DNA of 16,659 bases from a virus. Lineage: Duplodnaviria > Heunggongvirae > Uroviricota > Caudoviricetes. The DNA lies in IMG/VR virus record IMGVR_UViG_2548876696_000013; one strand, written 5' to 3'. Below are positions 1-16,659 of the stretch, piece by piece (position 1 is the first letter of the stretch; the number at the start of each line of letters is the position of its first letter). The translations under genes and the position numbers were made by a program. Below the pieces are notes generated by a model. That model did no database searches and was not told the origin of the DNA. It was given only the letters and a program-made list of their open reading frames with translations.

Positions 1-1461
1 ATGAAAAAATTACTGCGTCTTTTTTTCCCGCTCTCGCTGCGGGTACGTTTTCTGTTGGCAACGGCAGCGGTAGTACTGGTGCTTTCGCTTGCCTACGGAA
101 TGGTCGCGCTGATCGGTTATAGCGTCAGTTTCGATAAAACTACGTTTCGGCTGTTACGTGGCGAGAGCAATCTGTTCTATACCCTTGCGAAGTGGGAAAA
201 CAATAAGTTGCATGTCGAGTTACCCGAAAATATCGACAAGCAAAGCCCCACCATGACGCTAATTTATGATGAGAACGGGCAGCTTTTATGGGCGCAACGT
301 GACGTGCCCTGGCTGATGAAGATGATCCAGCCTGACTGGCTGAAATCGAATGGTTTTCATGAAATTGAAGCGGATGTTAACGATACCAGCCTCTTGCTGA
401 GTGGAGATCATTCGATACAGCAACAGTTGCAGGAAGTGCGGGAAGATGATGACGACGCGGAGATGACCCACTCGGTGGCGGTAAACGTCTACCCGGCAAC
501 ATCGCGGATGCCAAAGTTAACCATTGTGGTGGTGGATACCATTCCGGTGGAGCTAAAAAGTTCCTATATGGTCTGGAGCTGGTTTATCTATGTGCTCTCA
601 GCCAATCTGCTGTTAGTGATCCCGCTGCTGTGGGTCGCCGCCTGGTGGAGTTTACGCCCCATCGAAGCCCTGGCAAAAGAAGTCCGCGAACTGGAAGAAC
701 ATAACCGCGAATTGCTCAATCCAGCCACAACGCGAGAACTGACCAGTCTGGTACGAAACCTGAACCGATTGTTAAAAAGCGAACGCGAACGTTACGACAA
801 ATACCGTACAACGCTCACCGACCTGACCCATAGTCTGAAAACGCCACTGGCGGTGCTGCAAAGTACGCTGCGTTCTCTGCGTAGTGAAAAGATGAGCGTC
901 AGTGATGCTGAACCGGTAATGCTGGAGCAAATCAGCCGCATTTCACAGCAAATTGGCTACTACCTGCATCGTGCCAGTATGCGCGGCGGGACATTGCTCA
1001 GCCGCGAGCTGCATCCGGTCGCCCCACTGCTGGACAATCTCACCTCGGCGCTGAACAAAGTGTATCAACGCAAAGGGGTCAATATCTCTCTCGATATTTC
1101 GCCAGAGATCAGCTTTGTCGGTGAGCAGAACGATTTTGTCGAGGTGATGGGCAATGTGCTGGATAATGCCTGTAAATATTGCCTCGAGTTTGTCGAAATT
1201 TCTGCAAGGCAAACCGACGAGCATCTCTATATTGTGGTCGAGGATGATGGACCCGGTATTCCATTAAGCAAGCGAGAGGTCATTTTCGACCGTGGTCAAC
1301 GGGTTGATACTTTACGCCCTGGGCAAGGTGTGGGGCTGGCGGTAGCCCGCGAAATCACCGAGCAATATGAGGGTAAAATCGTCGCCGGAGAGAGCATGCT
1401 GGGCGGTGCGCGGATGGAGGTGATTTTTGGTCGCCAGCATTCTGCGCCGAAAGATGAATAA
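1..1461 (+). CDS. phoQ: Sensor histidine kinase PhoQ, complete (486 aa)
   Basis: Full-length ORF. Translation shows two TM segments flanking a periplasmic sensor domain with the acidic patch EDDDDAE, an H-box ([10 protein letters not shown]) and ATP-binding G-boxes ([15 protein letters not shown]). Recognised from memory as enterobacterial PhoQ; not verified by search. Confidence 0.95.
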
Positions 1462-2603: not shown

Positions 2604-4265
2604 TTACACCCCGCTAAATTCTTCCAGTTTCTGGCGGTGGCTGTCGCTTATATCAAAAGCAAAATCCTCATGCTCTGCCTGGAATGTACCAAACGCCATC
2701 AGCGCCGCTACGCTCGGGTCTATCTTGTTCGGTGATTTTTTCTTGTTCGGCTTGATATTGGCGTTCGCGTCACTCTGCATCACGACGTTACTCATCGACC
2801 AGGACAACACCGGATCGCCACGATGCACAATCACCCTGCGGTTAACAAAAACTTCGAACGATTTCGCCGCCGGACTGAATCTGAGGTAGGTTTGCGGGAA
2901 CGGCTCCACCTCAAAACCAGCCCCCTGTAATTGCGTCCTGAGATGCGTGGCGTTCCACGTATCAAAGCCCACCAGCCTGATATTAAATTTCTCCGCATCC
3001 TGCATGATGTCATCTCTGATCCGGTCGTAATCAATGCAGTCACCTGGCGTTGTGCGTATCCAGCCCGCTTTAGCCCACTGGCGATAGACAGCGCGGTTTT
3101 TATTGGCGGGGTTCTGTAGCTGGAACTCCGGCAGATAATGACGGGAAACCAGCATGATATTTTTACCGACCGGAAAGGCATAGCACACGCTGGAAATATC
3201 GCTGGTTGATGATAAGTCCAGCCCCGCGTAACACTCCTGCCCGTGTAAATCTTCCTCCGTGAACGTTCCGGCACACTCAGCCCATGCGCCGTTACCCATC
3301 CACGGGGTAGCCCCCTGGCACCAGATATTAAATCGCTTTGTCATCATCTCCACCCATTGCGACGGAATACCCCGCGCTTTCTGGATGGTTGAGGCCAGTT
3401 TTTCACGATCCACGGAAACATCGATGTTAGGGTTAGCCTTTATCCACATCGCCGGATCATCAACCTCGTTTTCGTCGTCCAGCTCGTAAATCAGCACAAA
3501 AATTGAATCGTTGACCTCTTCGCCGTCCAGGATCTGGCAGCAATAATCATAGTGCTGTTTACAGGTTGAAACGACGTTACTGCCCGATGTGGTAATGGCA
3601 AATAACAGCCCTTCGGGACGTGCGCCCATCCCCAGCTCAAGCGCGGAATAAACGCCGTTATCGGGGTGTAGGTGGTATTCGTCCACGATGGAAAGGCTGG
3701 GGTTTGTTCCCTCGATGGTTGCCGCTTTTGCTGCCAGCGGCTTTAACAGGCTGTTGCTTTTCGGGTGCATCACCTTGTGGGCCTGAATATTCACCCGCCT
3801 GCGTAACGGTCGGGATAAAAGGCACATCTGACGCGCATCATCAAAAACGATCCGCGCCTGGTCACGGCTCACCGCTGCGGTGTAAATATCCTGCTGCCCG
3901 TTCTCCATAATCAGAAACCAGTTAGCCAGAATCGCGGCGGTCGTGGATTTCGCATTTTTGCGCGGCACTTCGATAAAGGCGCTCGTGTATTTGCGCCGTC
4001 CGGTGGCCTTAACCTTAAAGCCGAGGATGCACGCAAAGGCGAACTGCTGCCACGGCTCCAGCTCAATGGGTCTGCCACGCATCGGCCCTTTTACGTGCGG
4101 GCACACCCTGGAAAAGGCAATAAACCGCTCCACAACCTCACGATCGAACGTGTAAAGGGGGCTTTCAAGGTCCGAAAAGTACCGTTTAACGGCCTGTTTC
4201 AGCCGTTTACAGGCCGGAATTTTGCCCGTTTTTACGTCTTCTGCGTACTTATTCCAGGCGGTCAA
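2604..4265 (-). CDS. terL: Terminase large subunit (553 aa)
   Basis: N-terminal ATPase with Walker A-like VPRKNAKST and a C-terminal nuclease region; its start overlaps the 3' end of the TerS gene. Confidence 0.9.
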   Translation of the reverse strand: MTAWNKYAEDVKTGKIPACKRLKQAVKRYFSDLESPLYTFDREVVERFIAFSRVCPHVKGPMRGRPIELEPWQQFAFACILGFKVKATGRRKYTSAFIEVPRKNAKSTTAAILANWFLIMENGQQDIYTAAVSRDQARIVFDDARQMCLLSRPLRRRVNIQAHKVMHPKSNSLLKPLAAKAATIEGTNPSLSIVDEYHLHPDNGVYSALELGMGARPEGLLFAITTSGSNVVSTCKQHYDYCCQILDGEEVNDSIFVLIYELDDENEVDDPAMWIKANPNIDVSVDREKLASTIQKARGIPSQWVEMMTKRFNIWCQGATPWMGNGAWAECAGTFTEEDLHGQECYAGLDLSSTSDISSVCYAFPVGKNIMLVSRHYLPEFQLQNPANKNRAVYRQWAKAGWIRTTPGDCIDYDRIRDDIMQDAEKFNIRLVGFDTWNATHLRTQLQGAGFEVEPFPQTYLRFSPAAKSFEVFVNRRVIVHRGDPVLSWSMSNVVMQSDANANIKPNKKKSPNKIDPSVAALMAFGTFQAEHEDFAFDISDSHRQKLEEFSGV

Positions 4266-4605
4266 GCTCGTCCTCTTCTTCTGTTTCCGGTGGATTTTTA
4301 CGGCGGCTTATCGGGTCAAAACCGAGCAAAGAGGCCATTTTTATCATCACTCTTTCAGCGTCGGATTTTGCGCTTAATGCGGGGTTTCTGCTCTCGCCGC
4401 CCTGACTGTTAACAATGCTGAACCCGCGCGCCGCAAGGTCTGCAACGGCTTTCCGGTAAATGGAGTAGTTGACACAATACAGTTCCAGATTGCTCCAGTC
4501 GGCGGGGGTCAGGTCTCCCCGTTCCGCAAGCTGCCTAGATTTTTCCCGCCACTGCTTCACGGCGATATCATCCAGGTAGGCGGGGGCTTTCGGTGGTCTT
4601 GCCAT
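4249..4605 (-). CDS. terS: Terminase small subunit, P27-like family (118 aa)
   Basis: Small basic protein immediately upstream of and overlapping TerL. Sequence pattern resembles the P27 small-terminase family (from memory). Confidence 0.75.
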   Translation of the reverse strand: MARPPKAPAYLDDIAVKQWREKSRQLAERGDLTPADWSNLELYCVNYSIYRKAVADLAARGFSIVNSQGGESRNPALSAKSDAERVMIKMASLLGFDPISRRKNPPETEEEDELDRLE

Positions 4606-4893
4606 GCTTATTTTTCGCCAGATTATTTTTCAAAAAATTCCCGTGCATAAAAATTTGAGGAGGCGTTCGGTGCCCGGCGGGGTCGGGTTTGTCCTGAAAA
4701 CGCCCCCCACCCCGTCATACAGCCTCATCAGCGATTGCGGAAACATTCCATAACCTCGCGGTCACGGTCGGTTAATCGCTTCGCTGTGATGCGTTCTGCG
4801 CGTCCTGACGCTTTATCTTTATGCCCTGTTTCCTGTGTCTTCCATGCGTCACGCTGCCTTATAAGTCCACGGATAAGGCGGTTTTGTTCCCGC
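4606..4893 (-). other. Candidate cos / packaging-initiation region (non-coding gap between HNH and terS)
   Basis: 288-bp gap in an otherwise tightly overlapping operon. Contains a GC-rich stretch (4664-4720: gtgcccggcggggtcgggtttgtcctgaaaacgccccccaccccg). In HK97-like cos phages the cos site sits between the HNH gene and terS. Confidence 0.35.
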
Positions 4894-5334
4894 TCATTCA
4901 TCGGCGTCATACATCCAGTTATTGCGGTTAGCGGCCCGTTCTTCCTCTTCACGAAATCCACCTGCGGCACGCTTGCTTTTTGTTGCCGGATCAAGCCATT
5001 TCGTTTTCTGGTTATGACACGCCTGGCACAATGGCTGATGGTTCCATTCGGGCCAGAAGAGAACATCATCACCGCCATTAATCGGGATAATGTGATCCAC
5101 CACCACGGCGGGCGTATATATCCCCTTCTCAAGGCATCGCACGCATAACGGGTTTTTACTCAGATACATGGCGCGGTATTTGTCCCACTGTCTGGAATAT
5201 CCACGCGCGCGGCGGTGTCCTCGTCTGGCATCCTCTGCACGCCATGCCGCCCGCCTGTGCTCCTCACACTTGCCGGATTTAACGCGCCTGTTACAGCCTG
5301 GTTCTGTGCATCGTCTTAATGGTTGCCACGGCAT
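4894..5334 (-). CDS. HNH endonuclease, packaging-associated (146 aa)
   Basis: Cys-rich zinc-finger-like segments (CTEPGCNRRVKSGKCEEH, CVRCLEKG, CQACHNQK) and an HNH-like core (VVDHIIPI...WNHQPLC). Position directly upstream of the terminase genes. Confidence 0.85.
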   Translation of the reverse strand: MPWQPLRRCTEPGCNRRVKSGKCEEHRRAAWRAEDARRGHRRARGYSRQWDKYRAMYLSKNPLCVRCLEKGIYTPAVVVDHIIPINGGDDVLFWPEWNHQPLCQACHNQKTKWLDPATKSKRAAGGFREEEERAANRNNWMYDADE

Positions 5335-5630
5335 CAGTACACCCCCACATCACGGTAAGCCGTCCAGAGTGCGCCAATCGTCATGGGTACGCGTGTTTTT
5401 GCGTTATCCGCGACAATCTGGCGATTCTCATACAGGTGAGCGATAAACATCATGCAGCCAATCTTTATGGCTGGCGTGAACTCCAGCCCGTCATCAAAGC
5501 GCCTGCCTATATGTATCTGGCACGCCTCAAGCGATGCGGCAATGTATCCGCTGATTAACTGGTCTTCCTCGTCGCCATCGATACGGCAATGGAGTTTCAC
5601 TTCTTCCAGGGTGATAAGTTCTTCTGTCAT
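5334..5630 (-). CDS. Head-tail connector protein, gp6-like (98 aa)
   Basis: Size, position after the head-closure gene, and N-terminal LEEVKLHCRID motif typical of gp6-like connector proteins. Start overlaps the upstream stop by 4 nt. Confidence 0.7.
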   Translation of the reverse strand: MTEELITLEEVKLHCRIDGDEEDQLISGYIAASLEACQIHIGRRFDDGLEFTPAIKIGCMMFIAHLYENRQIVADNAKTRVPMTIGALWTAYRDVGVY

Positions 5631-5965
5631 TTTTCCGCGCCCTCACGACAAAGAATTTCAAGGCGTGTCCTGGCGGCATCCGGCAGCGGCTGCCCGATGA
5701 TATTCAGTACACGCCCCGCCAGCGGCCCCGTATTGACCTTTATCCGGCTGGTGGCGCTGATGTCCTTCCGGTACCGTATCCAGATCCTTACGGTACCAAT
5801 CGCCAGCTCTGCACCCGATGAAATGGCCTCCTTGCTGCTGACCATGTTCACGCTTGCCCAGAGTGTGTGACTGTCCTCCCACGTTTCGAGTATTTCGCCA
5901 GTTATATCCCTGGTCTGTTTCAGGGTCTGAATCGTTACCCTGTCACGCAGTCGCCCTATGTTCAT
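5627..5965 (-). CDS. Head closure / head-tail adaptor protein (112 aa from the internal start MNIGRLRDRVTIQ)
   Basis: The start chosen is the ATG overlapping the portal stop (ATGA at 5962-5965). The GRLRDRVTIQ motif is typical of this family. The longer ORF reaching 6007 would overlap the portal gene. Confidence 0.65.
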   Translation of the reverse strand: MNIGRLRDRVTIQTLKQTRDITGEILETWEDSHTLWASVNMVSSKEAISSGAELAIGTVRIWIRYRKDISATSRIKVNTGPLAGRVLNIIGQPLPDAARTRLEILCREGAEK

Positions 5966-7173
5966 TCCGGTTTTTCTCCCTCGCTGATTTTTACTTCCTG
6001 TTTCCATGCCTGGCTGAACTCATCACCACCATCACGCGGGGACAGCCCTTCACGTTCGCGGGCTTCGTTCGGGCACATAACGCCGGATTTGATACCGCGC
6101 TCATAGGTGGCAAAGCGTTCGCCAGGTGTGGCCCGTAACAGGTCCGCGCTGTCAAACTCCACCTGATACCGGATACCAGGTACAGGCGAGGCCACCAGCA
6201 GGGCGTTTTTTATCTGCTGCTCAAAGTTCGCCAGCCACGGGCGCATCGTCATGGTGAGAAATGCGCGGCTTGCCTCGCTGAAATTGCTGTAGGTGCTGTT
6301 GCTGTATTCCTGCAAAAAAATCGGCGAGACGTTGAACATTCGGGCGATGTCTTCAATGGTGAAGCGACGGGAGGCCAGCCATTCAGCATCCTGGTTACTC
6401 ATGCCCAGCTGCTGGTAACTCATGCCACCTTCAAGGATGGGCGTTTTTCCGGCGTTTCTGGCCCCTTTATAGCGTTCCAGTGCGGCTAATGCCTGTTTGC
6501 CCTTCACGCCGTCCAGCCATTCGCCTGACGTGATAACCCCTGCCGCCATCATGCCATCACGCATCACGCTCGCGCCGTGGCGTTGTTGGGCCAGCCCAAG
6601 CCCCAGCGATTCGCGGCAGATGGTTACAGGTGAGCGCCCCATAAAACCGTCATCCGTGGAGTAACGAAGGTGGAGAACCTCCCACGGTAAATAGTTGCGG
6701 GTGTTTCCGGTGTAGGCGTCAGTGATGCAGTAGCGCCAGTTATGCTCACCTGTCTGCTCCACGTTCACCGACTGCGGCGGGTAAGGATGTAAAGCCACCG
6801 GAAAACCATCACGCCCCCACTGAATCACCGCATAAGCATTACCGTTTAACAGGCAGTGGCGGATCATCATTCGCTTAAACTGGTAGGGGGTTTGCCATGC
6901 GTTCGGGCGCTCGTTGAGGATGTGATCGACCGGATGAGAATCAAGCCACTCGCGGGCCACCTTCCCCTTCTCATTGCGTACCAGGTACAGGTAACACGGC
7001 ATGGTAGCCACCGCCTCAGAGATGACCGTGACGGCGTTCATGACGGCGGGCAGTGATTCCGCTGTCCCCGATGATACGTACTCACCCGCCCCCGTGTTCG
7101 ATGTGCCAGCCAGCGCCATAAATTCATCAAGCGTCATGCTGCGCTGCTCTTTTTTTCTTCTGAAAGGCCACAT
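5962..7173 (-). CDS. Portal protein, HK97 family (403 aa)
   Basis: Size and position between the protease and adaptor genes; HK97-type portal sequence pattern from memory. Confidence 0.85.
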   Translation of the reverse strand: MWPFRRKKEQRSMTLDEFMALAGTSNTGAGEYVSSGTAESLPAVMNAVTVISEAVATMPCYLYLVRNEKGKVAREWLDSHPVDHILNERPNAWQTPYQFKRMMIRHCLLNGNAYAVIQWGRDGFPVALHPYPPQSVNVEQTGEHNWRYCITDAYTGNTRNYLPWEVLHLRYSTDDGFMGRSPVTICRESLGLGLAQQRHGASVMRDGMMAAGVITSGEWLDGVKGKQALAALERYKGARNAGKTPILEGGMSYQQLGMSNQDAEWLASRRFTIEDIARMFNVSPIFLQEYSNSTYSNFSEASRAFLTMTMRPWLANFEQQIKNALLVASPVPGIRYQVEFDSADLLRATPGERFATYERGIKSGVMCPNEAREREGLSPRDGGDEFSQAWKQEVKISEGEKPE

Positions 7174-7174
7174 A

Positions 7175-7747
7175 TCACACCCCCGCTAAATCCACCCACC
7201 AGCGGCGATTATCCGCACGCGGCATTTTTTCGGGGTGCTGCTCATACAGGGAACGGCGGGCCAGCTCCACGCCGGAATCAGGGTAAGCCGGAACGGATGT
7301 AACGGTAATTTCGTACAGTTCCGCCACCAGCACGGTGCGCACGCATGGTTCTGTTGTGGTATCCCATACATCCTTACGGGAACGAAAGCCAAAGCTCATG
7401 CCGGATATATCACCACGTTTAACCAGTTCGATAACGTCCCGCCCTGTGCTGGTATCCGGTGGGGTCAGTTCAAAGCGTAACCCTGTTTCGTCCTCTTCCA
7501 GTTTCAGCGTGCCGGAACGGGTACGCCCCAGTAACATGCTGTGGTCATGCTCATACAGGCCGCGAACGTCATTACCCGCCGCAAGCCATTCAGTAAACGC
7601 TCCCCGCTGGAATTTTTCGTAAAACTCACCCCATAACAGTTCTGAAAGCTTATCCCAGCGAACAACGTAGCCCGTCAGCGTACCGGCTCCGCTGGTGGTG
7701 ATTTCCGATGACCGGATTTCCATACTCTTCATAATTTTTTCACCCAT
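7175..7747 (-). CDS. Prohead maturation protease, HK97 family (start ambiguous among ATGs at 7747, 7732 and 7723)
   Basis: Conserved protease-family pattern (GYVVRWDK ... HD ... LLGRT ... GLRFE ... ISGMSFGF). The first ATG lies inside the upstream terminator tract, so the true start is probably one of the next two. Confidence 0.8.
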   Translation of the reverse strand: MGEKIMKSMEIRSSEITTSGAGTLTGYVVRWDKLSELLWGEFYEKFQRGAFTEWLAAGNDVRGLYEHDHSMLLGRTRSGTLKLEEDETGLRFELTPPDTSTGRDVIELVKRGDISGMSFGFRSRKDVWDTTTEPCVRTVLVAELYEITVTSVPAYPDSGVELARRSLYEQHPEKMPRADNRRWWVDLAGV

Positions 7748-7756
7748 AAAACACTA

Positions 7757-7776
7757 AAGGGGCTTTTAAGCCCCTT
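7757..7776 (-). terminator. Intra-operon hairpin (GGGGCTT-AAGCCCC) followed by a U-rich tract, between the capsid and protease genes
   Basis: Hairpin directly seen in sequence. On the minus-strand transcript it is followed by UUUAGUGUUUUAU. Likely a partial terminator that sets capsid-to-downstream stoichiometry. Confidence 0.5.
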
Positions 7777-7786
7777 CTGTATGCTG

Positions 7787-8944
7787 TTAATCGTCGTCCT
7801 GTGGCAGTTCCAGAATCTTGATCGCGTTCGAATCCACCACGCCACCGCCTAAATATTTCTGCGTGAAAATTTTGATGAAGCCCGGCTCTGTGAGGTTGTC
7901 CGGTCTGGTGCGAACACCTGTTTCGTGATCAACAATGTAGTAACCGCGTTTGAAGTCACCCAGGGCAATAACGTTATCAGGCATAAACTCCAGATATTCG
8001 ACCGGAAGGCCCAGCAACGTATCAGGATCACCCGCCTGTAAACGGTCGCGCCAGATGTAATCACCGTTCGCGTTCTTCACCTTCTGAAGTTTTGCCGCCG
8101 TCGTGGAGTTAACCACCCAGACCGCGTTTTTGCGGTATTTTTTACGTAATGCAAATTTCAGGTCGATCAACGGGTCCGCAGATGTCCACGCCAGAGATTC
8201 GGAAGGTTTAATTACCTGCAACGTACCAAAATCACGCTCTTTGTCGTTCTTCTCTGCACGGGGTACGGATAAAAAGCCTTTTGCTTTTTTGTCACCGTCG
8301 CCCACAACCAGATCGCTTTCTTCGGTTTCCGTGAAGGTGTCGCCAATCTCACCCGTCAGCCATGAAAGGATGTCCACATCGGAAAAATCCACGATTTCCT
8401 GTGTGGTGCGCGGGTACGCATAGACCGGATACAGCTTAATGCTCACCTCGTTAATCTGCGGGGTGCTGGTCTGTTCGCGTGTCTTACCCTCTTCACCGTG
8501 GTTAACGGTCGCACCGCCAGCGGAAACAAGCTGCTTAAACTCGTTGCTGCTGATTTTCTTCACGGTACAGATGCGGCGCATGGTGGACTCATCCGCCAGC
8601 ATTCGCATGATTTCGGTGTTCAGCTCGGGGATAACGGTATAACCACCATCAGCGGGAACGCCTGTACTTAATGCGCGGGTTTCACCCGTCAGAATGTAGT
8701 TTCGTAGTTCTGCGGGGTCAGTGGTCTGACTGCTTTTACCTGGCTTGCTGCGCTCTTCGTCTGCAATGGCTTCAAGGCGGGAAATGTCTTTATCGAGGGA
8801 TTCAGCTTTAGCGCGTAATTCGTCAAATTTTGCGCCCTCAGCATCGTTAAGACTGCGGTTTTCTTTTTCCGCGTTCTCCAGCATGTCGCGCATCTGATTT
8901 TTAATGGCGGTTTTCTGCTGGCGTAATTCGATTATTCTCGGCAT
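7787..8944 (-). CDS. Major capsid protein, HK97 fold, with N-terminal coiled-coil delta (scaffold) domain (385 aa)
   Basis: N-terminal 100 aa are charged and helical (delta-domain-like), followed by a capsid-like body. First gene of the head operon. Confidence 0.9.
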   Translation of the reverse strand: MPRIIELRQQKTAIKNQMRDMLENAEKENRSLNDAEGAKFDELRAKAESLDKDISRLEAIADEERSKPGKSSQTTDPAELRNYILTGETRALSTGVPADGGYTVIPELNTEIMRMLADESTMRRICTVKKISSNEFKQLVSAGGATVNHGEEGKTREQTSTPQINEVSIKLYPVYAYPRTTQEIVDFSDVDILSWLTGEIGDTFTETEESDLVVGDGDKKAKGFLSVPRAEKNDKERDFGTLQVIKPSESLAWTSADPLIDLKFALRKKYRKNAVWVVNSTTAAKLQKVKNANGDYIWRDRLQAGDPDTLLGLPVEYLEFMPDNVIALGDFKRGYYIVDHETGVRTRPDNLTEPGFIKIFTQKYLGGGVVDSNAIKILELPQDDD

Positions 8945-10719: not shown

Positions 10720-12129
10720 TTACAGCGGGCGCACGTCATCACCGTCAATAACGATTACGCCATCATTTTCCAGCTTGTACAGCCAGCGCCGGAAGTGCTT
10801 CATCTCATACCCCAGCTTTTTCATATCATCGCGGAGAAGGGCGATAGTGCACGCCTCCCCGTGTGCTGTTCGTGTTCTGATGCACTGCCATAGCGCGGCG
10901 TGATTCTCCGTCTTGTTCCCTGCCTCCTCGATGCGCTCCAGTTCAACGGGAGGGCGCGGCTTATCCACCACCACCAGCGACGTGATTAACTCCCCGTCAG
11001 CGTCGGTAAAAAGCTCCACCACCCGCAAATCATAGGCAGCCTCTTTGAGTTCCTCCGCGTCCTTCATTTTGGTGCATGAGATAACCAGCGCTTCGCTTCC
11101 TGCGTCCTCCCTGCGTATCCGGTATTCAGCATCCAGTGATGCACGAAATGCACTGGAACCGCGCGCGCCTTTCGTCTCATCCTTGCCGGAATGGTGAACC
11201 ACCAGCACCGTGGCCCCTGTGCGCCGTTTCAGTTCGTCACACCCACGGATAAACGCCCCCATGTCACGGGAATCATTTTCGTCATTGCCGCCAAAGCAAC
11301 GCGCCAGCGTGTCCAGAATAATCATGCGAACAGGTTTACCCGTTTCCCGCTCAACCTGGCTGGCAGCAATAACCAGTTCATCAACATCAAGCGGGACAGC
11401 CGGAAAGATGGGACGGTTTACAAGGTAAAGATTTTTCACCTGCTCCCCGTGCACAACCTCCCAGGCTTTTACACGACGCGGAACGCCAATACCGCCTTCA
11501 CCAACCACATAGAGAACAGCGCCATGCGCCACCCTGCGGCCTCCCCACTGGCGGCCCGTGGAAACGTGACACGCCCACGATCCGGCAAGGAATGATTTAT
11601 AGGAACCGCTCGCCCCGTATATGCTGCAAAGCGACGATGCCGGAATAATCCCCTTTACCACGTAATCAAGCTGTGTGTCGTATCCGGTAGATCCAACGCT
11701 CATCGGTAGCGTGGTTTTTCGCTGGGGGATTTTTTTCATGACCAGGCTTTCCCCGCGTTCCCATGCCTCCCTAAGCCGTGGAAGCTGGTCGTTCCATTCC
11801 TCCAGCAATTCGAAATTTTCAGAAAGTAGCCGCGCCTCCTGGACTCCGGCGATCGCCAGTTTCGTGGCGATGGTTAACAGCTGCGGCTCTTCAATATTTC
11901 CGGCGCGTATCACCGTCGCCCTGTATCGCCCATCATCAACAATCTGGAGGTTATCCAGTTCGCTTAACTGATAACGCCCCAGATAAACGGGAGGGACTGG
12001 ATCGCCTGCTTTTTTGGCCTGTGCAATGATGTAGTGCTCTGCAAATGAGTGCGCATTATTCCCCGCGAAAATAATTGCTTCGGTGTATTTGTCTTTCGGT
12101 AATAGTTTTACGTTCGGTGCAAGTTTCAT
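10720..12129 (-). CDS. Replication initiation ATPase / helicase-like protein, RecA-fold AAA type (469 aa)
   Basis: Walker A motif GASGSYKS, Walker B-like MIILDTLARCF, and a C-terminal putative winged-helix region. Position immediately upstream of the iterons. Confidence 0.8.
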   Translation of the reverse strand: MKLAPNVKLLPKDKYTEAIIFAGNNAHSFAEHYIIAQAKKAGDPVPPVYLGRYQLSELDNLQIVDDGRYRATVIRAGNIEEPQLLTIATKLAIAGVQEARLLSENFELLEEWNDQLPRLREAWERGESLVMKKIPQRKTTLPMSVGSTGYDTQLDYVVKGIIPASSLCSIYGASGSYKSFLAGSWACHVSTGRQWGGRRVAHGAVLYVVGEGGIGVPRRVKAWEVVHGEQVKNLYLVNRPIFPAVPLDVDELVIAASQVERETGKPVRMIILDTLARCFGGNDENDSRDMGAFIRGCDELKRRTGATVLVVHHSGKDETKGARGSSAFRASLDAEYRIRREDAGSEALVISCTKMKDAEELKEAAYDLRVVELFTDADGELITSLVVVDKPRPPVELERIEEAGNKTENHAALWQCIRTRTAHGEACTIALLRDDMKKLGYEMKHFRRWLYKLENDGVIVIDGDDVRPL

Positions 12130-12425
12130 TTTTTACCCCTGAATACGTTCAACATCTTTCTTATTTCCTGAATATTGGCGCGTGCTTTCTCCCTGCTGGT
12201 GGGCACGTTACGCGGTACAGCCTGCACCAGAGAAAAATCACGGTCGAACTGATAAACAGGCATAACGCAATCATATTCGTAGCCTTCACGGCGGTAAGTT
12301 ACGCGCCGTTCCTCCACGCCCTTAATCATTACCGTGCCGCCGTACTGGTCGCGGTAAATATCACCGCGCGTAAATTTAGGGTGAGTGTTGCCACTGGCAG
12401 TTAAGCCAGGATATTTAAGTTTCAT
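12126..12425 (-). CDS. DUF4222-like small protein (99 aa)
   Basis: The pattern GDIYRDQYGGTVMIKGVEERRVTYRREGYEYDCVMPVYQF resembles the DUF4222 family often found next to satellite or prophage replication genes (from memory). ATGA overlap with the rep gene. Confidence 0.55.
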   Translation of the reverse strand: MKLKYPGLTASGNTHPKFTRGDIYRDQYGGTVMIKGVEERRVTYRREGYEYDCVMPVYQFDRDFSLVQAVPRNVPTSREKARANIQEIRKMLNVFRGKK

Positions 12426-12430
12426 TATTT

Positions 12431-12658
12431 TTATTCTCCGGTGTGGGGCGCTTTATTATTTTCGTGAATTGCCATCGCCTTATCCAGTTCATCAATTACA
12501 GGCGATAGTAATGTCTGAACGGCGGCAAATATTAATGATGCAGGTTCTCCACCATCTTCCGGCACGTCTATTAACTTAATTAACAGCGCATTCATTTCAC
12601 GCGCTTTAATTAATGCGTTTTCAGAATGAATAAGAACATCATAGGGTATTTTATGCAT
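12431..12658 (-). CDS. Hypothetical protein (75 aa)
   Basis: ORF whose start overlaps the stop of the upstream small gene by 8 nt (ATGCATAA). No family recognised. Confidence 0.5.
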   Translation of the reverse strand: MHKIPYDVLIHSENALIKAREMNALLIKLIDVPEDGGEPASLIFAAVQTLLSPVIDELDKAMAIHENNKAPHTGE

Positions 12659-12821
12659 GACTCACCCCCTGACGAATACGGGCGACAAAAATCAGATGTG
12701 CGCGCGGCAACTGGGCGCGGGCTTCGCGTTCAGTGGCTGCGGTAACGGTGTAAATATCAATGCTGCTGTGGTGGCACTGCATAAAGCGCCAGACAAAGTA
12801 AGGGCGTGCGGATACAGCCAT
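12651..12821 (-). CDS. Small protein, paralog B (56 aa core; possibly Icd-like). A longer 150-aa form starting at 13115 is also possible
   Basis: Shares FVWRF, TEREAR and ARIRQG motifs with paralog A. A synonymous codon difference in the shared ARIRQG segment supports coding on this strand. Start is ambiguous. Confidence 0.45.
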   Translation of the reverse strand: MAVSARPYFVWRFMQCHHSSIDIYTVTAATEREARAQLPRAHLIFVARIRQGVSHA

Positions 12822-13107
12822 GTGAAAGGCTCCCAGATGAAATTTAAGGAGTCTCGCTACTACGCTGCTAAACGGGGTGGCGAGACGTAACAGGGTTAGC
12901 AGACTGGTCATCTGGAAACCAGCGAGCGCAAAGGCTCCCCCGTTACGCCCCGCCATAATGCGGGTATGGGTAGGTTTACGGACACAAAAAAACCGCTTAT
13001 CGGATATGGGCGGCTGTCCGCCAGATGTATTCAGGCTGCTAAACCCGGTCGCCATGTGGGCGACGGGTGAAGCATACAGCCCCGTTATAATTTTTTGCAA
13101 GCGGCTT

Positions 13108-13305
13108 TTACTCATGATGTGACCCCTGACGAATACGAGCGGCAAATACAGCAACACAACCGGACGGGCAACGGTTACGCGCTTCGCGTTCCGTCCAGGC
13201 GGTGACGTGGATGATTTGAGATTCTCCGGCACTCAGGGCCAGAAAACGCCACACAAAGGCCGTTTGTGTGTGTACAAGGTGTGGTATATGATTTACGGCA
13301 ACCAT
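13108..13305 (-). CDS. Small protein, paralog A (65 aa); possible host cell-division-inhibitor Icd-like protein
   Basis: Strong SD (GAGGAG 6 nt upstream of the ATG). Paralogous to 12651-12821. The Icd-like call rests on an uncertain memory of the family pattern. Confidence 0.5.
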   Translation of the reverse strand: MVAVNHIPHLVHTQTAFVWRFLALSAGESQIIHVTAWTEREARNRCPSGCVAVFAARIRQGSHHE

Positions 13306-13336
13306 AACGGCTCCTCGTTTACGTTGTTGGTTAGAA

Positions 13337-13377
13337 GCCCCGTATGTGTTCCAGCACTGCGGGGTTTCGTCTTTTCT
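13337..13377 (+). terminator. Hairpin (ccccg / cgggg stem, conserved 17-nt loop) with a U-rich tail; plus-strand terminator-like element, copy 1
   Basis: Seen in sequence. A near-identical element, including the loop, occurs at 14083-14124. Confidence 0.45.
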
Positions 13378-13394
13378 GTACCTTGCATCAACAA

Positions 13395-13476
13395 GGTGTA
13401 AGACACAATGTAAAATAACGGTGTCTTACACGTCAACCCTTCAAAATATTTTTTTTTCGTGTATATTGTCTTACAC
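13395..13476. promoter_or_regulatory. Divergent promoter/operator region with three GTCTTACAC sites (one inverted pair and one direct copy)
   Basis: GGTGTAAGACAC at 13395-13406 is the reverse complement of GTGTCTTACAC at 13421-13431; a third copy lies at 13467-13476. A possible sigma70 promoter (TTCAAA, 16-nt spacer, TATATT) sits at 13440-13467. Confidence 0.5.
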
Positions 13477-13497
13477 CAAAAACATGAGGGGTTAAAC

Positions 13498-13677
13498 ATG
13501 GCAACGGGGCCAAAGAATGCAAAATCACAATCTGTAACTGCACGTATTGCCCATGAAATTATTGAAGGCATGGAGAACGTGAAAGAAGAAGGTGAAAGCA
13601 CGGGGCAGTTTATAAACGCAGCCATGCGCGGCGAAATCAAACGCCGCCAGCGTCGCAAGGCCAAAGAATCAGAATAA
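13498..13677 (+). CDS. Ribbon-helix-helix (CopG/Arc/MetJ-like) DNA-binding protein (59 aa); candidate repressor
   Basis: GAGGGG SD 7 nt upstream of the ATG. Beta-strand/helix/helix pattern (QSVTARIAHEIIEGMENVKEEGESTGQFINAAMRGEI) and a basic C-terminal tail. Confidence 0.55.
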   Translation: MATGPKNAKSQSVTARIAHEIIEGMENVKEEGESTGQFINAAMRGEIKRRQRRKAKESE

Positions 13678-13734
13678 TCACTATCAGCGCCGTGGTGTGA
13701 GGTACTACGGCGCATTGCTTTACAGGGCAGTATC

Positions 13735-13962
13735 ATGACCAACAACACACTATCACCAATACAAGACACGCAAACGCAAGATGATGAAATCATCCGGCAA
13801 AGGCAGTCAGAAGCCTGCGCCAGACTTGAGGAAGAACTAACCAGAACAAAAATACCACCACCAGCGCCGCGCTTAGTGCCACCAGAAAAATTTGCCCTTG
13901 AAGATTTTGTCGATAAATACCCACGGCGGCTTAAATCCGGCAAAAACCGACCGCCAGGATGA
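13735..13962 (+). CDS. Small hydrophilic protein (75 aa), partner of the RHH protein, module 1
   Basis: Paralogous to 14420-14623 (both start MTN; shared motif F-x-L-[ED]-[DE]-F-[VL]-x-K-Y-[PS]-R). Weak SD. Confidence 0.4.
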   Translation: MTNNTLSPIQDTQTQDDEIIRQRQSEACARLEEELTRTKIPPPAPRLVPPEKFALEDFVDKYPRRLKSGKNRPPG

Positions 13963-14082
13963 GTGCACAAAACCGAACTATGAAACGGATTATTCCGTTT
14001 CCGGGGCGTTTGTGTGTGTATAAAGAGTAAGCTATGCTCTTTTATAGCCATAATCGTTACCTCAATTAATGGTTTGGTTAGA

Positions 14083-14124
14083 CGCCCCGTATGTGTTCCC
14101 ATCACTGCGGGGCGTTGTTTTTTG
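14083..14124 (+). terminator. Rho-independent terminator-like hairpin (CGCCCCG / CGGGGCG) plus TTGTTTTTTG, copy 2
   Basis: 7-bp stem, 18-nt loop nearly identical to the loop at 13343-13359, then a T-rich tract. Confidence 0.5.
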
Positions 14125-14130
14125 TGCTAG

Positions 14131-14164
14131 TTGTGTGTAATGTGTATATACACATAAACACATT
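14131..14164. promoter_or_regulatory. Operator-like 16-bp perfect palindrome ATGTGTATATACACAT (14140-14155) overlapping a putative -10 element
   Basis: Perfect palindrome seen directly. Possible promoter TTGTGC (14122-14127), 17-nt spacer, TATATA (14145-14150). Confidence 0.45.
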
Positions 14165-14182
14165 ATATGGGGTGTAATTGAC

Positions 14183-14362
14183 GTGTCAACACACAAGAAT
14201 GAAAGGCGTGGTAATCCTCCTTTCCAGTTCCGTTTAGATCCTGACTTACGGGAAAAGATGGAAAAAGCACAACAACAAGACGGTGATGACTCTTTAGCTG
14301 CTTGGATAAAACGAATAATCCGAAAAGAATTACAGCAACGCGGTATTGAACCCAAAGAATAA
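14183..14362 (+). CDS. Arc-like ribbon-helix-helix protein (59 aa, GTG start)
   Basis: Absent from the supplied ORF track because it is only 59 aa. GGGGTG SD 8 nt upstream of GTG at 14183. The pattern PPFQFRLDPDLREKMEKAQQQDGDDSLAAWIKRIIRKEL matches the Arc/RHH fold. Confidence 0.5.
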   Translation: MSTHKNERRGNPPFQFRLDPDLREKMEKAQQQDGDDSLAAWIKRIIRKELQQRGIEPKE

Positions 14363-14419
14363 AAAACATCAGCGCCGTGGCGTGAGGAACTCCGGCGCAT
14401 TGCTTTACAGGTACACACA

Positions 14420-14623
14420 ATGACCAATAAAGAATCAACCAATACACCATCGCAAAAAACGAACAGAGAGCACGAAAATATGGCGCTCGAGCATGAATCA
14501 GAAAGATTCGCTCCATGCGCTTTTGTCCTTGATGAGTTTCTAAAAAAATATTCACGTTCTGAACGGATGAAAATGGCAGCACAATACGGCCCCAACAAGC
14601 AAGGTAATTGCCCACCAGCCTGA
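14420..14623 (+). CDS. Small hydrophilic protein (67 aa), partner of the RHH protein, module 2
   Basis: Paralog of 13735-13962; preceded by the same conserved hairpin element. Confidence 0.4.
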   Translation: MTNKESTNTPSQKTNREHENMALEHESERFAPCAFVLDEFLKKYSRSERMKMAAQYGPNKQGNCPPA

Positions 14624-14697
14624 TAGCGGCTATCATTCCCGTGCTTATGTTTGGGATCACATACACATAAGGCGCAGCAGGTTAATTGTTCAGAAAG

Positions 14698-14726
14698 GCG
14701 GCTCCATATCGGGGCCGCTTTTTTTA
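14698..14726 (+). terminator. Strong Rho-independent terminator (GCGGCTCC-atatc-GGGGCCGC then T7)
   Basis: 8-bp GC-rich stem with one G-U pair, 5-nt loop, seven T's. Ends the plus-strand modules and lies convergent with the alpA 3' end. Confidence 0.75.
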
Positions 14727-14866
14727 TGCCTGAAAAACCCCAATTTTGTTGTTTTTCAGTTTCACCAGGGCGAACGAATCCCCGCCCACGTTCGGGCGCA
14801 TATTCAATCTTCATAGTTATATCTCTGTATTAGTGGATGTGTGGCGACTGTGTGCCGCCAGTCTTT

Positions 14867-15429: not shown

Positions 15430-16659
15430 TTATTTTATTCTGGTTACTGGTAGCGTGGTTACGTTTTCATGTGTTCCCGCCAGTATCTCCAACCGCTCCA
15501 CCCACATATCAAGCGCATTGCGTTTCGCATCAATATAGCGGGAATGGTTGTACACGCGTTGCATTCCTGGCATCTGGTGGCCTGTAAGCTGCTCCACGAC
15601 GTGAGGATCAACGCCTAAATCGTTCAGCATGGTTGTAAAGGTGCGCCGGATGTCATGCAGTGACCAGTGAGGGTGTTTAAGCCTCCTGTGCACCAATCTG
15701 CCGTACTGCGATACGCTGGTTTCCTGTTTCACTTCCCCCAGCAATAAGCCCGTGTGCCTGTTCTGCTCCACCAGCTGCGTGACGAACGGCAGTATCGCTT
15801 CCGGTATGGGCCGGAATATGGCTACCTTCGTTTTGCTGTGCTCCTTCGGAACGGTCCAGAGCATTTCGGTAAAATCCCACTCGCCGATCTCCGATAACCT
15901 CAGTTCTACTGTCCGGCATCCGAAAACAATCAGGAGGCGGATTAGTGCGACGTAGTAAGGGGAAAATATTTTTTTGTCCAGTGCCTGCAATAATTCGCCA
16001 AGTTCTTTGTTACTTAAGACACGCTCACTTATATCCGGTTTTTTCCCAACGTCCGCCACACTCATATCATCAAGAACGTTGCTGATTGCATAGCGCCGCT
16101 TCCTGCAGAACTTAAGCGCCTGCTTGCATGTCTGTAGCAGGAACCCGGCGGAAACAGGGGCTTTCTTTGCCACCCGATCAAAACAGGCCAGCCAGTGCCG
16201 TAGCTCGCATTTATCCAGCGGCATAGGGCCAATGTGCTGTATTACGTGATTATTTAGCCGCTTTTTCAGTGGGTCATAATCCACACGGTTTTCCTTTGCG
16301 TACGACTCAAGCCAGTAGGTGAGCGCATCGCCAACCGTTACCGGCTTTAACGCTTCCTGTACGGTGTAATTCATTTCATGACGTGGATTTTTCCCCTCTG
16401 CCAGCCATGCGCGACACTGGGCGGCTTTTTCCCTGGCTGATTTCAGGCTCAGATCAGGATAATTTCCCAGCTTAATGCGTTCCGGTGGTGCCCCCCTTCC
16501 CGTTCCGGCCCTGTAAGTGAAATACCAGGTTAAAAGGCCACTGGTTGAATGCCTGACGCTCAGGTTTCCACCGTCATTAAGAAAGGCTGTTTTTTGGGCG
16601 GGTGTGCCGTTGATTTTCCTCAGCTGTGTATCGCTCAGTTTGTTAAGTGCTCTGCTCAT
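15430..16659 (-). CDS. int: Tyrosine site-specific integrase, P4-like (409 aa; start codon is the last three bases of the window)
   Basis: N-terminal arm-binding-like region (LSDTQLRKI ... DGGNLSVRHSTSGLLTWYFTYR) and a C-terminal catalytic region with conserved R, HxxR and Y (HDIRRTF ... YNHSRYID). The upstream RBS is outside the window, so the true start could lie further out. Confidence 0.9.
   Translation of the reverse strand: MSRALNKLSDTQLRKINGTPAQKTAFLNDGGNLSVRHSTSGLLTWYFTYRAGTGRGAPPERIKLGNYPDLSLKSAREKAAQCRAWLAEGKNPRHEMNYTVQEALKPVTVGDALTYWLESYAKENRVDYDPLKKRLNNHVIQHIGPMPLDKCELRHWLACFDRVAKKAPVSAGFLLQTCKQALKFCRKRRYAISNVLDDMSVADVGKKPDISERVLSNKELGELLQALDKKIFSPYYVALIRLLIVFGCRTVELRLSEIGEWDFTEMLWTVPKEHSKTKVAIFRPIPEAILPFVTQLVEQNRHTGLLLGEVKQETSVSQYGRLVHRRLKHPHWSLHDIRRTFTTMLNDLGVDPHVVEQLTGHQMPGMQRVYNHSRYIDAKRNALDMWVERLEILAGTHENVTTLPVTRIK

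Follow-up and report, generated by a model that had tools for sequence, protein, structure and literature searches.

The present analysis concerns a small locus in a 16,659-nucleotide (nt) stretch of tailed-virus DNA (Caudoviricetes; IMG/VR record IMGVR_UViG_2548876696_000013), hereafter called the window, in which two short genes for Icd-like proteins, icd-1 and icd-2, are separated by an interval of 286 nt (13107-12822). Both genes, the elements of the interval and the promoters discussed below all lie on the minus strand. Judged from its sequence, the interval between icd-1 and icd-2 is a C4-type antisense RNA gene together with its target sites, and it is crossed by an open reading frame (ORF) that starts on the stop codon of icd-1 and ends as icd-2. 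A first-pass annotation of this DNA had already pointed to the two small proteins and to an open frame in the gap between them; the frame is indeed open, although the gap had been given as 285 bp.

The two small proteins were assigned by profile search to the NCBIfam model NF033153, 'host cell division inhibitor Icd-like protein', whose curated cut-off of 25 bits both exceed (Table 1). On the same model, the Icd protein of phage P1 scores 52.6 bits and the 65-amino-acid (aa) Kil protein of satellite P4 76.1 bits. The family, previously named with reservation, is thereby confirmed, and icd-2 corresponds to icd in P1 and to kil in P4. That the two ORFs are paralogous was likewise borne out, with 46% identity over 54 aa in BLASTP (E 1e-12) and the motifs AFVWRF/YFVWRF, TEREAR and ARIRQG common to both. 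At the DNA level, direct repeats of 41 nt and 30 nt (D1, D2) recur in the two genes at a distance of 457-460 nt. Pfam contains no model for either of them. In PHROG, Icd-like proteins fall into families 1743, 6196 and 29966 under the label 'transcriptional repressor'. Immunity in P4 is carried by RNA. The PHROG label probably goes back to the former 'cI protein' ORF of P4, and the P4 record NC_001609 still annotates a 'cI gene product (AA 1-137)' coding sequence (CDS).

Each of the two icd stop codons is overlapped by the start codon of the next frame, at the junctions ATGAGTAA and ATGCATAA. This recurrent stop/start overlap had been seen correctly, but its spacing, described as ATG-NNN-TAA, is in reality ATG-NN-TAA, with a total of 8 nt. 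Start and stop codons that overlap or abut link icd-2 to a 75-aa ORF (orf75) and further to genes for a DUF4222 protein and a helicase/primase.

The central element of the interval is the C4 antisense RNA gene, which was detected with the Rfam model RF01695 over its full length. In the C4 family, RNase P processing of a longer precursor yields a stable RNA of ~77 nt. By alignment to the C4 RNA of P1, the mature RNA is predicted at ~12954-12876; at its ends, a 3' GCCACC and an aligned 5' GGCGGGG are visible in the sequence. In addition, the interval folds with -113.8 kcal/mol (z = -4.5), an energy that 0 of 200 dinucleotide shuffles reached. Together, the Rfam match (E 1e-13) and the fold exceed chance by far and bear out the early impression that the interval looks like RNA structure.

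Two single-stranded segments of C4, the a' segment and the b' loop, are complementary to target sites on both sides of the RNA gene. All four sites (a1 and b1 upstream, a2 and b2 downstream) align with the annotated sites of P1, and in the window the pairing amounts to 7 nt for a'/a1, a'/a2 and b'/b1 and to 9 nt for b'/b2. The b2 site overlaps the Shine-Dalgarno sequence of icd-2 (GGGAG, 12834-12830); b' on one side and b2 plus Shine-Dalgarno on the other form the inverted repeat I2, with 13 complementary nt. An internal repeat in the interval had also been noted. It consists of GCTGCTAAAC, present on the plus strand at 12864-12873 and 13035-13044 (repeat D3, 18 nt, 83%), and because its copies coincide with the aligned a1 and a2 sites, it is the a1/a2 target pair. 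On the RNA strand of the whole 16.6-kb window, TTAGCAG is found only at a1 and a2, and its complement CTGCTAA once, between the two. In the case of the b 7-mer, extra copies beyond the expected sites are present in the window at chance level. An alternative hairpin at 12886-12851 (I5) places a2 in its loop.

The upstream targets belong to a c4-a1b1 motif, for which RF03163 gives 44.4 bits (gathering threshold 46.7), compared to 44.1 for the seqA region of P4 and 46.8 for the related locus L139. It is followed by a terminator hairpin of the IsrK type, which is conserved in P1 and forms part of the minimum free energy (MFE) fold. The isrK model itself (RF01394) covers 13064-12986 with 36.8 bits (E 5e-6), P4 scoring 60.8; because the score in the window is below the gathering threshold of 50, the interval was not filed as isrK. 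As a separate observation, the exact 10-nt sequence GGGAGCCTTT (D6) occurs twice on the RNA strand, in the first hairpin of C4 (12930-12939) and across the icd-2 Shine-Dalgarno and the following five bases (12825-12834). The copy in C4 could be a Shine-Dalgarno mimic, or due to chance.

Table 1. Coordinates of the features in and around the icd-1/icd-2 locus.
Feature	Position	Strand	Remarks
icd-1, 65-aa Icd-like protein	13108..13305	-	NF033153, 64.8 bits; Shine-Dalgarno GAGGAG at 13316-13311
icd-2, 56-aa Icd-like protein	12651..12821	-	NF033153, 55.2 bits; ATG aligns with P1 icd ATG
Junction 1, ATGAGTAA	13115-13108	-	icd-1 stop overlaps long-frame start; ATG-NN-TAA, 8 nt
Junction 2, ATGCATAA	12658-12651	-	icd-2 stop overlaps start of 75-aa ORF; ATG-NN-TAA, 8 nt
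Long (Eta-like) ORF, 154 aa	12651..13115	-	Crosses the RNA elements, ends as icd-2
Peptide IITGLYASPVAHMATGFSSLNTSGGQPPISDK			Example from residues 1-98 of the 154-aa form
C4 antisense RNA gene	12873..12960	-	RF01695, 71.6 bits (gathering 45), E 1e-13, model 1-87 of 87
b' loop CCAGATG	12915-12909	-	Single-stranded segment of C4
a' segment CTGCTAA	12902-12896	-	Single-stranded segment of C4
c4-a1b1 motif including sites a1 and b1	13021..13077	-	RF03163 match 13077-13028, E 1.3e-9
a1 TTAGCAG	13042-13036	-	Upstream target; aligns with annotated P1 a1
b1 CATCTGG	13027-13021	-	Upstream target; aligns with annotated P1 b1
IsrK-like terminator hairpin GCCGC...GCGG	12986..13014	-	Run of seven T at 12992-12986; conserved in P1; in MFE fold
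a2 TTAGCAG	12871-12865	-	Downstream target; aligns with annotated P1 a2
b2 TCATCTGG	12840-12833	-	Downstream target; aligns with annotated P1 b2
Candidate upstream promoter P_up	13407..13436	-	TTGACG 13436-13431, 18-nt spacer, TACATT 13412-13407; 9/12 consensus (scan)
Operator-like repeats GTGTAAGACAC, also read as GTGTAAGACA(C)	13396..13476	-	Three copies, read from sequence
Candidate internal promoter	13071..13100	-	TTGCAA 13100-13095, 18-nt spacer, TATGCT 13076-13071
75-aa ORF (orf75), coupled after icd-2	12431..12658	-	Includes junction 2; phrog_2196, function not known for the family
DUF4222 protein	12425-12126	-	Pfam PF13973; operon downstream of icd-2
Helicase/primase-like AAA_25 protein	12129-10720	-	Pfam PF13481 and PHROG primase/helicase families
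YlcI/YnfO family gene, 59 aa	13498..13677	+	Divergent; NF041551, 64.1 bits
phoQ	1-1461	+	Flanks the island at one end of the window
Island integrase	15430-16659	-	At the opposite window end from phoQ

The kinship with P1 was apparent at the nucleotide level. In a blastn search, 190 nt of the interval (13052-12863) showed 75-79% identity to the c4 region in 25 records of P1/P7-like phages. A three-way alignment with the annotated P1 sequence was colinear throughout, taking in, one after the other, the hexamers of promoter P51b, a1, b1, the terminator-like hairpin, C4, a2, b2 and the start of icd. We examined how these elements vary among related loci. A pattern scan of IMG/VR yielded 72 loci, which fall into two classes: P1-like plasmid prophages, where a promoter and the C1 operator lie upstream and an upstream icd is absent, and a satellite class, where an icd-1-type gene with the ATG-NN-TAA junction lies upstream.

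Without exception, the 54 intact unique loci have an a' that pairs at 7 of 7 positions with both a1 and a2 and a b' that pairs over 7 nt with b1. Within the satellite class, two a-alleles (TTAGCAG, TTGACAG) and six b-alleles (CATCTGG, GCAAAG, CTACAG, AATTGG, CTGTAG, ACATAG) occur in several combinations, and the loop always changes together with both of its targets, with 8-9 base pairs to b2. This three-way covariation of loop and targets is the signature of a specificity-determining antisense RNA. The heteroimmunity of P1 and P7 is a parallel to it, and two a-alleles by six b-alleles in a small sample would predict many mutually heteroimmune types of satellite. Duplex energies of C4 were also considered as evidence and rejected as too noisy, the cognate target being lowest or tied in most rows, not in all; the C4 of locus L012, for example, had a lower energy against P1 target-2 than against its cognate. 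In another locus (L062), C4 is lost after the b' loop.

Among the species-representative genomes of GTDB, the pattern scan gave a single match (L004), a 2.9-kb contig (JAFAFU010000019.1) of a 'Bacillota bacterium' metagenome-assembled genome, and because this was the only one, the survey was moved to IMG/VR, metagenomes and Escherichia coli genomes. The contig carries a P1-class c4 region with the a-allele TTAGCAG and is most likely an enterobacterial or phage contamination of the assembly.

Comparison with the immI region of P1 and P7 (c4 - icd - ant1/2) as a whole extends the likeness to the order of the elements and to the aligned -35 and -10 hexamers of the candidate internal promoter. In both cases, b2 overlaps the Shine-Dalgarno in front of an Icd-like ORF, the stop codon of that ORF in turn overlaps the following gene, and specificity is set by a and b alleles. 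The a-allele of the window is also found in P1-class loci that we compared, whereas P1 itself has TTGACAG. Several distinctions were identified as well. An antirepressor does not follow here, where the genes under control would be the small ORF, DUF4222 and helicase/primase genes. The RNA elements are preceded by an Icd-like gene and a start codon only here, and the frame across c4 is open here and closed in most loci of the P1 class. Finally, the module sits in an integrated satellite and not in a plasmid prophage.

The open frame is the second main property of the interval. A fused form had been proposed at 150 aa; it does exist as an open frame, but measures 154 aa from the junction ATG at 13115, and the ORF listing extends the same frame to a GTG at 13232 (193 aa). 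The ambiguity between the short and the fused form, which had been raised at the same time, is reflected in RefSeq, where the NCBI annotation pipeline (PGAP) calls the 154-aa form in most records and 57-aa forms in another. In 22 of 23 satellite-class loci, the 294 nt from the junction ATG to the icd-2 ATG contain no in-frame stop, compared to 6-7 and 1-8 stops in the other frames. Among the 33 loci of the P1 class, a class that lacks an ORF upstream, 29 have an interrupted icd frame. To remove bias, the Shine-Dalgarno and ATG of icd-2, which are independent of the interval, were used as the anchor, and IMG/VR, metagenomes and fetched E. coli loci together provided 47 unique upstream variants. 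The long frame is open for at least 294 nt in 41 of these, and the other two frames usually contain 5-8 stops.

Indels within the interval show how the frame is maintained. In one class of variants, a -1 at b1 is accompanied by a +1 in the terminator loop; in the other, a -1 at b1 is accompanied by a +1 in the b' loop, such that reading switches to a different frame for ~120 nt and again meets no stop. Because these variants restore the frame yet alter the reading, it is openness that is kept and not the peptide. On the grounds of this conservation, the 154-aa frame is probably real as a translated ORF. Individual exceptions could be located. In the one broken case within IMG/VR (L068), six T in place of seven in the terminator run shift the long frame, and stops in the long frame are present in the metagenome variants L246, L248, L265, L273 and L280. 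Together with L062, these may be decayed copies, assembly errors, or lineages without the long form.

In the immunity region of P4 (PLL/PLE, seqA, cI RNA, seqC, with kil nested in eta), a comparable arrangement is known. The P4 ORF 8812-8168 spans the matches to isrK/a1b1 and to C4 (74.9 bits) and ends in Kil, and its gene, eta, begins at ATGATGATG on the stop codon of ORF88. Among P4-like elements, the eta frame is open in 57 of 60 variants, across many immunity alleles. In P4 as in the window, a long ORF encloses an RNA of the C4 family and a target of isrK/a1b1 type, and its final ~60 residues are Icd-like; this ORF starts on an upstream stop codon and upstream of an internal promoter (in the window a candidate with 8/12 consensus), and replication genes follow downstream. 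By coordinate arithmetic on the model matches, the long ORF and P4 eta read both RNA models in the same phase. In a MAFFT alignment the two are colinear, with MxxxxLQK, SPxA, FFCV over the U-run and then the Icd/Kil part. The differences concern the upstream coupling partner (ORF88, which is vis/alpA-like, versus a second Icd-like protein here), the seqA-cI spacer, which is ~80 nt longer in P4, the overlap itself (ATGA in P4 versus ATGAGTAA here), and the RNA, which is only distantly similar in sequence. An nhmmer profile built from P1-type C4 missed the P4 RNA, so Rfam was used in its place.

According to the passages of PMC10111431 that summarise Forti et al. (1999), the P4 promoter is internal to eta, and its transcript is terminated through CI/seqA and processed to CI. 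In the same passages Kil is described as a shortened Eta, Eta in its full length arises solely from the upstream late promoter and in coupling to the upstream alpA homologue, and Eta translation prevents termination; both eta and the nested kil are translated across the cI RNA gene. This bears on the choice between RNA and coding sequence that had been posed for the interval in the first-pass annotation: the RNA was confirmed, while the either/or is probably wrong, as the homologous region in P4 serves both. In its passages on satellites, PMC10111431 further describes matches of the Rfam C4 and isrK profiles in several Gram-negative phage-inducible chromosomal islands (GN-PICIs) and in helper-embedded PICIs, with a proposed function in immunity. 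In contrast to the window, the RNA is placed there inside 'Bro network' genes, and these passages make no mention of tandem Icd-like genes or of allele covariation. Overall, the architecture of the locus would be a hybrid, joining P1-type sequence and Shine-Dalgarno occlusion to a nested long/short ORF and a replication operon of P4 type.

Candidate promoters were found on both sides of the junction ATG. The upstream one, P_up, is located between icd-1 and the divergently oriented YlcI/YnfO gene, in the intergenic region of the two. Here, an inverted pair of GTGTAAGACAC copies (13431-13421 / 13406-13396) brackets the -10 of P_up, and a third, direct copy lies 36 nt further upstream (13476-13467). 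These repeats, which can also be read as GTGTAAGACA, probably form an operator for a repressor. The internal candidate aligns with the annotated P1 promoter P1c4/P51b (TTGACC-17-TATAGT). Its -35 is situated downstream of the junction ATG, so that transcripts from this promoter would give only the 56-aa form. Promoter-like sites for the divergent YlcI/YnfO gene are present in the same region as the repeats (13396-13476).

From these comparisons, we consider it probable that the locus is an immunity and early-control module in which the immI design of P1/P7 (c4-icd) is combined with a nested long frame of P4 type, so that silencing by C4 can be bypassed by translating through the interval. By homology to P1 and P4, a weak and constitutive internal promoter within the long frame would produce a leader transcript. 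Part of it would end at the IsrK-like terminator, and the remainder would be processed, releasing C4. Pairing of C4 with a2 and b2 would block ribosome binding at icd-2; the coupled replication operon would then be silenced and its RNA exposed to premature termination. When the operator-controlled P_up fires, icd-1, whose Shine-Dalgarno is strong, would be translated, a step suggested by the conserved frame and by P4 eta. Ribosomes would re-initiate at ATGAGTAA and cross a1/b1, the terminator, the C4 gene and a2/b2, making the 154-aa form, and this translation through the RNA elements would render expression insensitive to C4. The 56-aa and the 154-aa forms would thus both be made, from different transcripts, and the N-terminal 98 residues would matter by being translated and not by their sequence.

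Some observations weigh against this interpretation, and several of them favour the view that the module is P1-like only, with a non-coding interval, the 56-aa Icd-2 as the sole product and the 154-aa frame as an untranslated by-product picked up by gene callers. P1 bears the same RNA elements and functions although it lacks a frame of this kind. Conservation does not extend to the peptide sequence, as the allele class with ~120 nt in another frame illustrates, and the N-terminal 98 aa have no match in Pfam or PHROG; BLASTP of the long ORF against P4 Eta likewise gave nothing significant. The frame is broken in 6 of the 47 variants. Furthermore, openness alone is weak evidence, because open segments of 230-403 aa upstream of other icd-1-type genes, which might have been taken for Eta-like fusions, clearly proved to be artefacts antisense to genes: their translations are rich in Ser, Arg and Cys, and 19 of 20 scanned single-copy loci are without C4, L139 being the exception. 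The compared loci are moreover closely related, mostly from E. coli and with 80-99% DNA identity in the interval, so the open frame is partly inherited and does not represent many independent trials. With regard to transcription, the internal promoter has only 8/12 consensus and was not called by the scan, both promoters are consensus-level candidates with a presumed function, and ribosomes would have to override the terminator-like hairpin. A purely P1-like module nevertheless leaves unexplained why the long frame has 0 stops against 5-8 in the other two, why its length is constant at 294 nt with compensated indels, and why it links a start codon on the upstream stop to icd-2; in addition, its P4 homologue is reported as translated and functional in the passages of PMC10111431 on P4. 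We regard the P1-like module as a possible but rather doubtful explanation.

Three further explanations appear less compatible with the data. The short leader RNA made from the internal promoter and ending at the U-run might act in trans as an activator that opens the long transcript and turns on translation of the genes downstream, as in the isrK-orf45-anrP system of Gifsy-1 in Salmonella. The isrK match including the terminator (13064-12986, E 5e-6) would fit, as would the IsrK paper, which calls IsrK a structural homologue of P4 SeqA with a processed RNA, STnc1160, downstream; an a1b1-like hairpin leader, a U-run terminator, a processed RNA and translationally coupled ORFs are common to Gifsy-1 and the window. 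However, the isrK score remains under its gathering threshold, and the downstream RNA scores fully as C4 and has loops matching the ribosome-binding region, which fits repression as in P1. The Gifsy-1 system works by activation, with an antiterminator as its outcome; Icd-like ORFs are not described in it, and no orf45- or anrP-like genes lie downstream in the window. This makes an IsrK-type activator unlikely. A simple tandem duplication, leaving two redundant division-inhibitor genes without a regulatory link, would be in line with the 46% identity of the paralogs and the repeat period of 457 nt. Yet the repeating unit comprises icd and C4, with two or three such cassettes and their own matched alleles in other genomes; most icd-1-type genes are single and coupled to various downstream genes; and the frame opened by the junction ATG of icd-1 is precisely the one that runs across the RNA. 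A mere duplication is thus very improbable. Hardly credible, finally, is the reading implied by RefSeq, which takes the interval as normal protein-coding DNA with one 154-aa Icd-like product and an apparent RNA structure that is incidental. The long CDS is annotated by PGAP in most genomes and accounts for at least 120 protein clusters with lengths of 152-155 aa, but a full-model Rfam match (E 1e-13), homology of the DNA to an experimentally defined RNA gene and frame-shifted alleles altering ~40 residues speak against it, and the three-way covariation of loop and targets already contradicts it.

Genes of the icd-1 type (82-100% identity) were found in 80 IMG/VR loci, of which only ~14 have the tandem form, and most loci carry an ATG that overlaps or abuts the icd stop (ATG-NN-TAA/TGA or ATGA). 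In a series of these loci (L078-L157), the junctions start at least 5 unrelated small downstream genes, and most icd-1-type genes are single. The junction can therefore be seen as a modular joint for coupling or recombination, as it starts varied genes. In two loci (L111, L140), a single icd-1-type gene leads directly into the same 75-aa ORF that follows icd-2, and for this reason the window looks like a ~457-nt cassette of leader, C4 and icd-2 placed between icd-1 and orf75. Such a cassette could have been inserted by recombination at the conserved 3' end of icd.

Longer series were detected in E. coli genomes. In 2012C-4502 (L238, 1160-2392), three C4 genes lie ~461 nt apart, and in STEC2018-553 (L239) two are in tandem, each followed by an Icd-like ORF. 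These cassettes have different matched a/b alleles, the first C4 being divergent, and PGAP mixes 57-aa, 154-aa, partial and frameshifted 'Icd-like' CDSs over them. We tentatively suggest, although with considerable doubt, that the ~457-461-nt unit of leader, C4 and icd is a stackable, recombining 'RNA lock' cassette, present one to three times in series in E. coli satellites, each copy with its own matched a/b specificity and all within one continuous frame, such that a single upstream translation, started here from an Icd-like gene under operator control, could open all locks. If true, the same DNA would combine the roles of RNA gene, RNA target and translated 'key', the peptide of the latter drifting freely.

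Of 5,426 complete E. coli genomes, 121 contain the interval, in every case on the chromosome. An 'Icd-like protein' CDS is drawn over it in 11 of 12 sampled RefSeq rows, and an RNA gene is listed at the interval in none of the RefSeq records examined. Because RefSeq lists a CDS without an RNA gene and PHROG speaks of a 'transcriptional repressor', the true regulator is hidden. The RNA and the proteins belong to the known C4 and Icd-like families, respectively; the arrangement is new, and would not surprise a specialist of P1 or P4. In the literature, we found no description of an Icd-like paralog as upstream coupling partner, of a conserved frame across a P1-type c4, or of cassettes in tandem that differ in their alleles; Icd-like genes are noted in most elements by a survey of Enterobacter satellites from 2026. 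For one family of capsid-forming PICIs, the module suggests a way in which replication genes may stay silent and induction may bypass the silencing, with a mechanistic tie to P4 and P1. One sequence would here obey two constraints, RNA structure with pairing and an open frame, which is useful for gene callers and for viewing translation as a regulatory act.

By its gene content, the window is a capsid-forming PICI-type satellite of E. coli phages located beside phoQ. It combines an integrase and replication genes with genes for capsid, protease, portal, connectors, TerS and TerL over ~15 kb and has no tail genes. Pfam matches spanning 2604-8944 comprise TerL, TerS, an HNH protein, a head-tail connector, a head completion protein, the portal, the prohead protease and the major capsid protein, the HNH endonuclease adjoining TerS/TerL; the island further encodes a single-stranded DNA-binding protein (SSB), the helicase/primase and the integrase. 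The genes of the downstream operon (10720-12425, minus strand) overlap or abut one another. Regarding other frames, a 250-aa ORF (14062-14814, minus strand) has no match in Pfam, NCBIfam or PHROG, and a Pfam search with the opposite-strand ORFs 12657-12890 and 12877-13122 gave no match. A 270-aa frame (13293-14105, minus strand), antisense over the YlcI/YnfO gene, is probably spurious. The divergent arrangement of the YlcI/YnfO gene is also present in E. coli W24.

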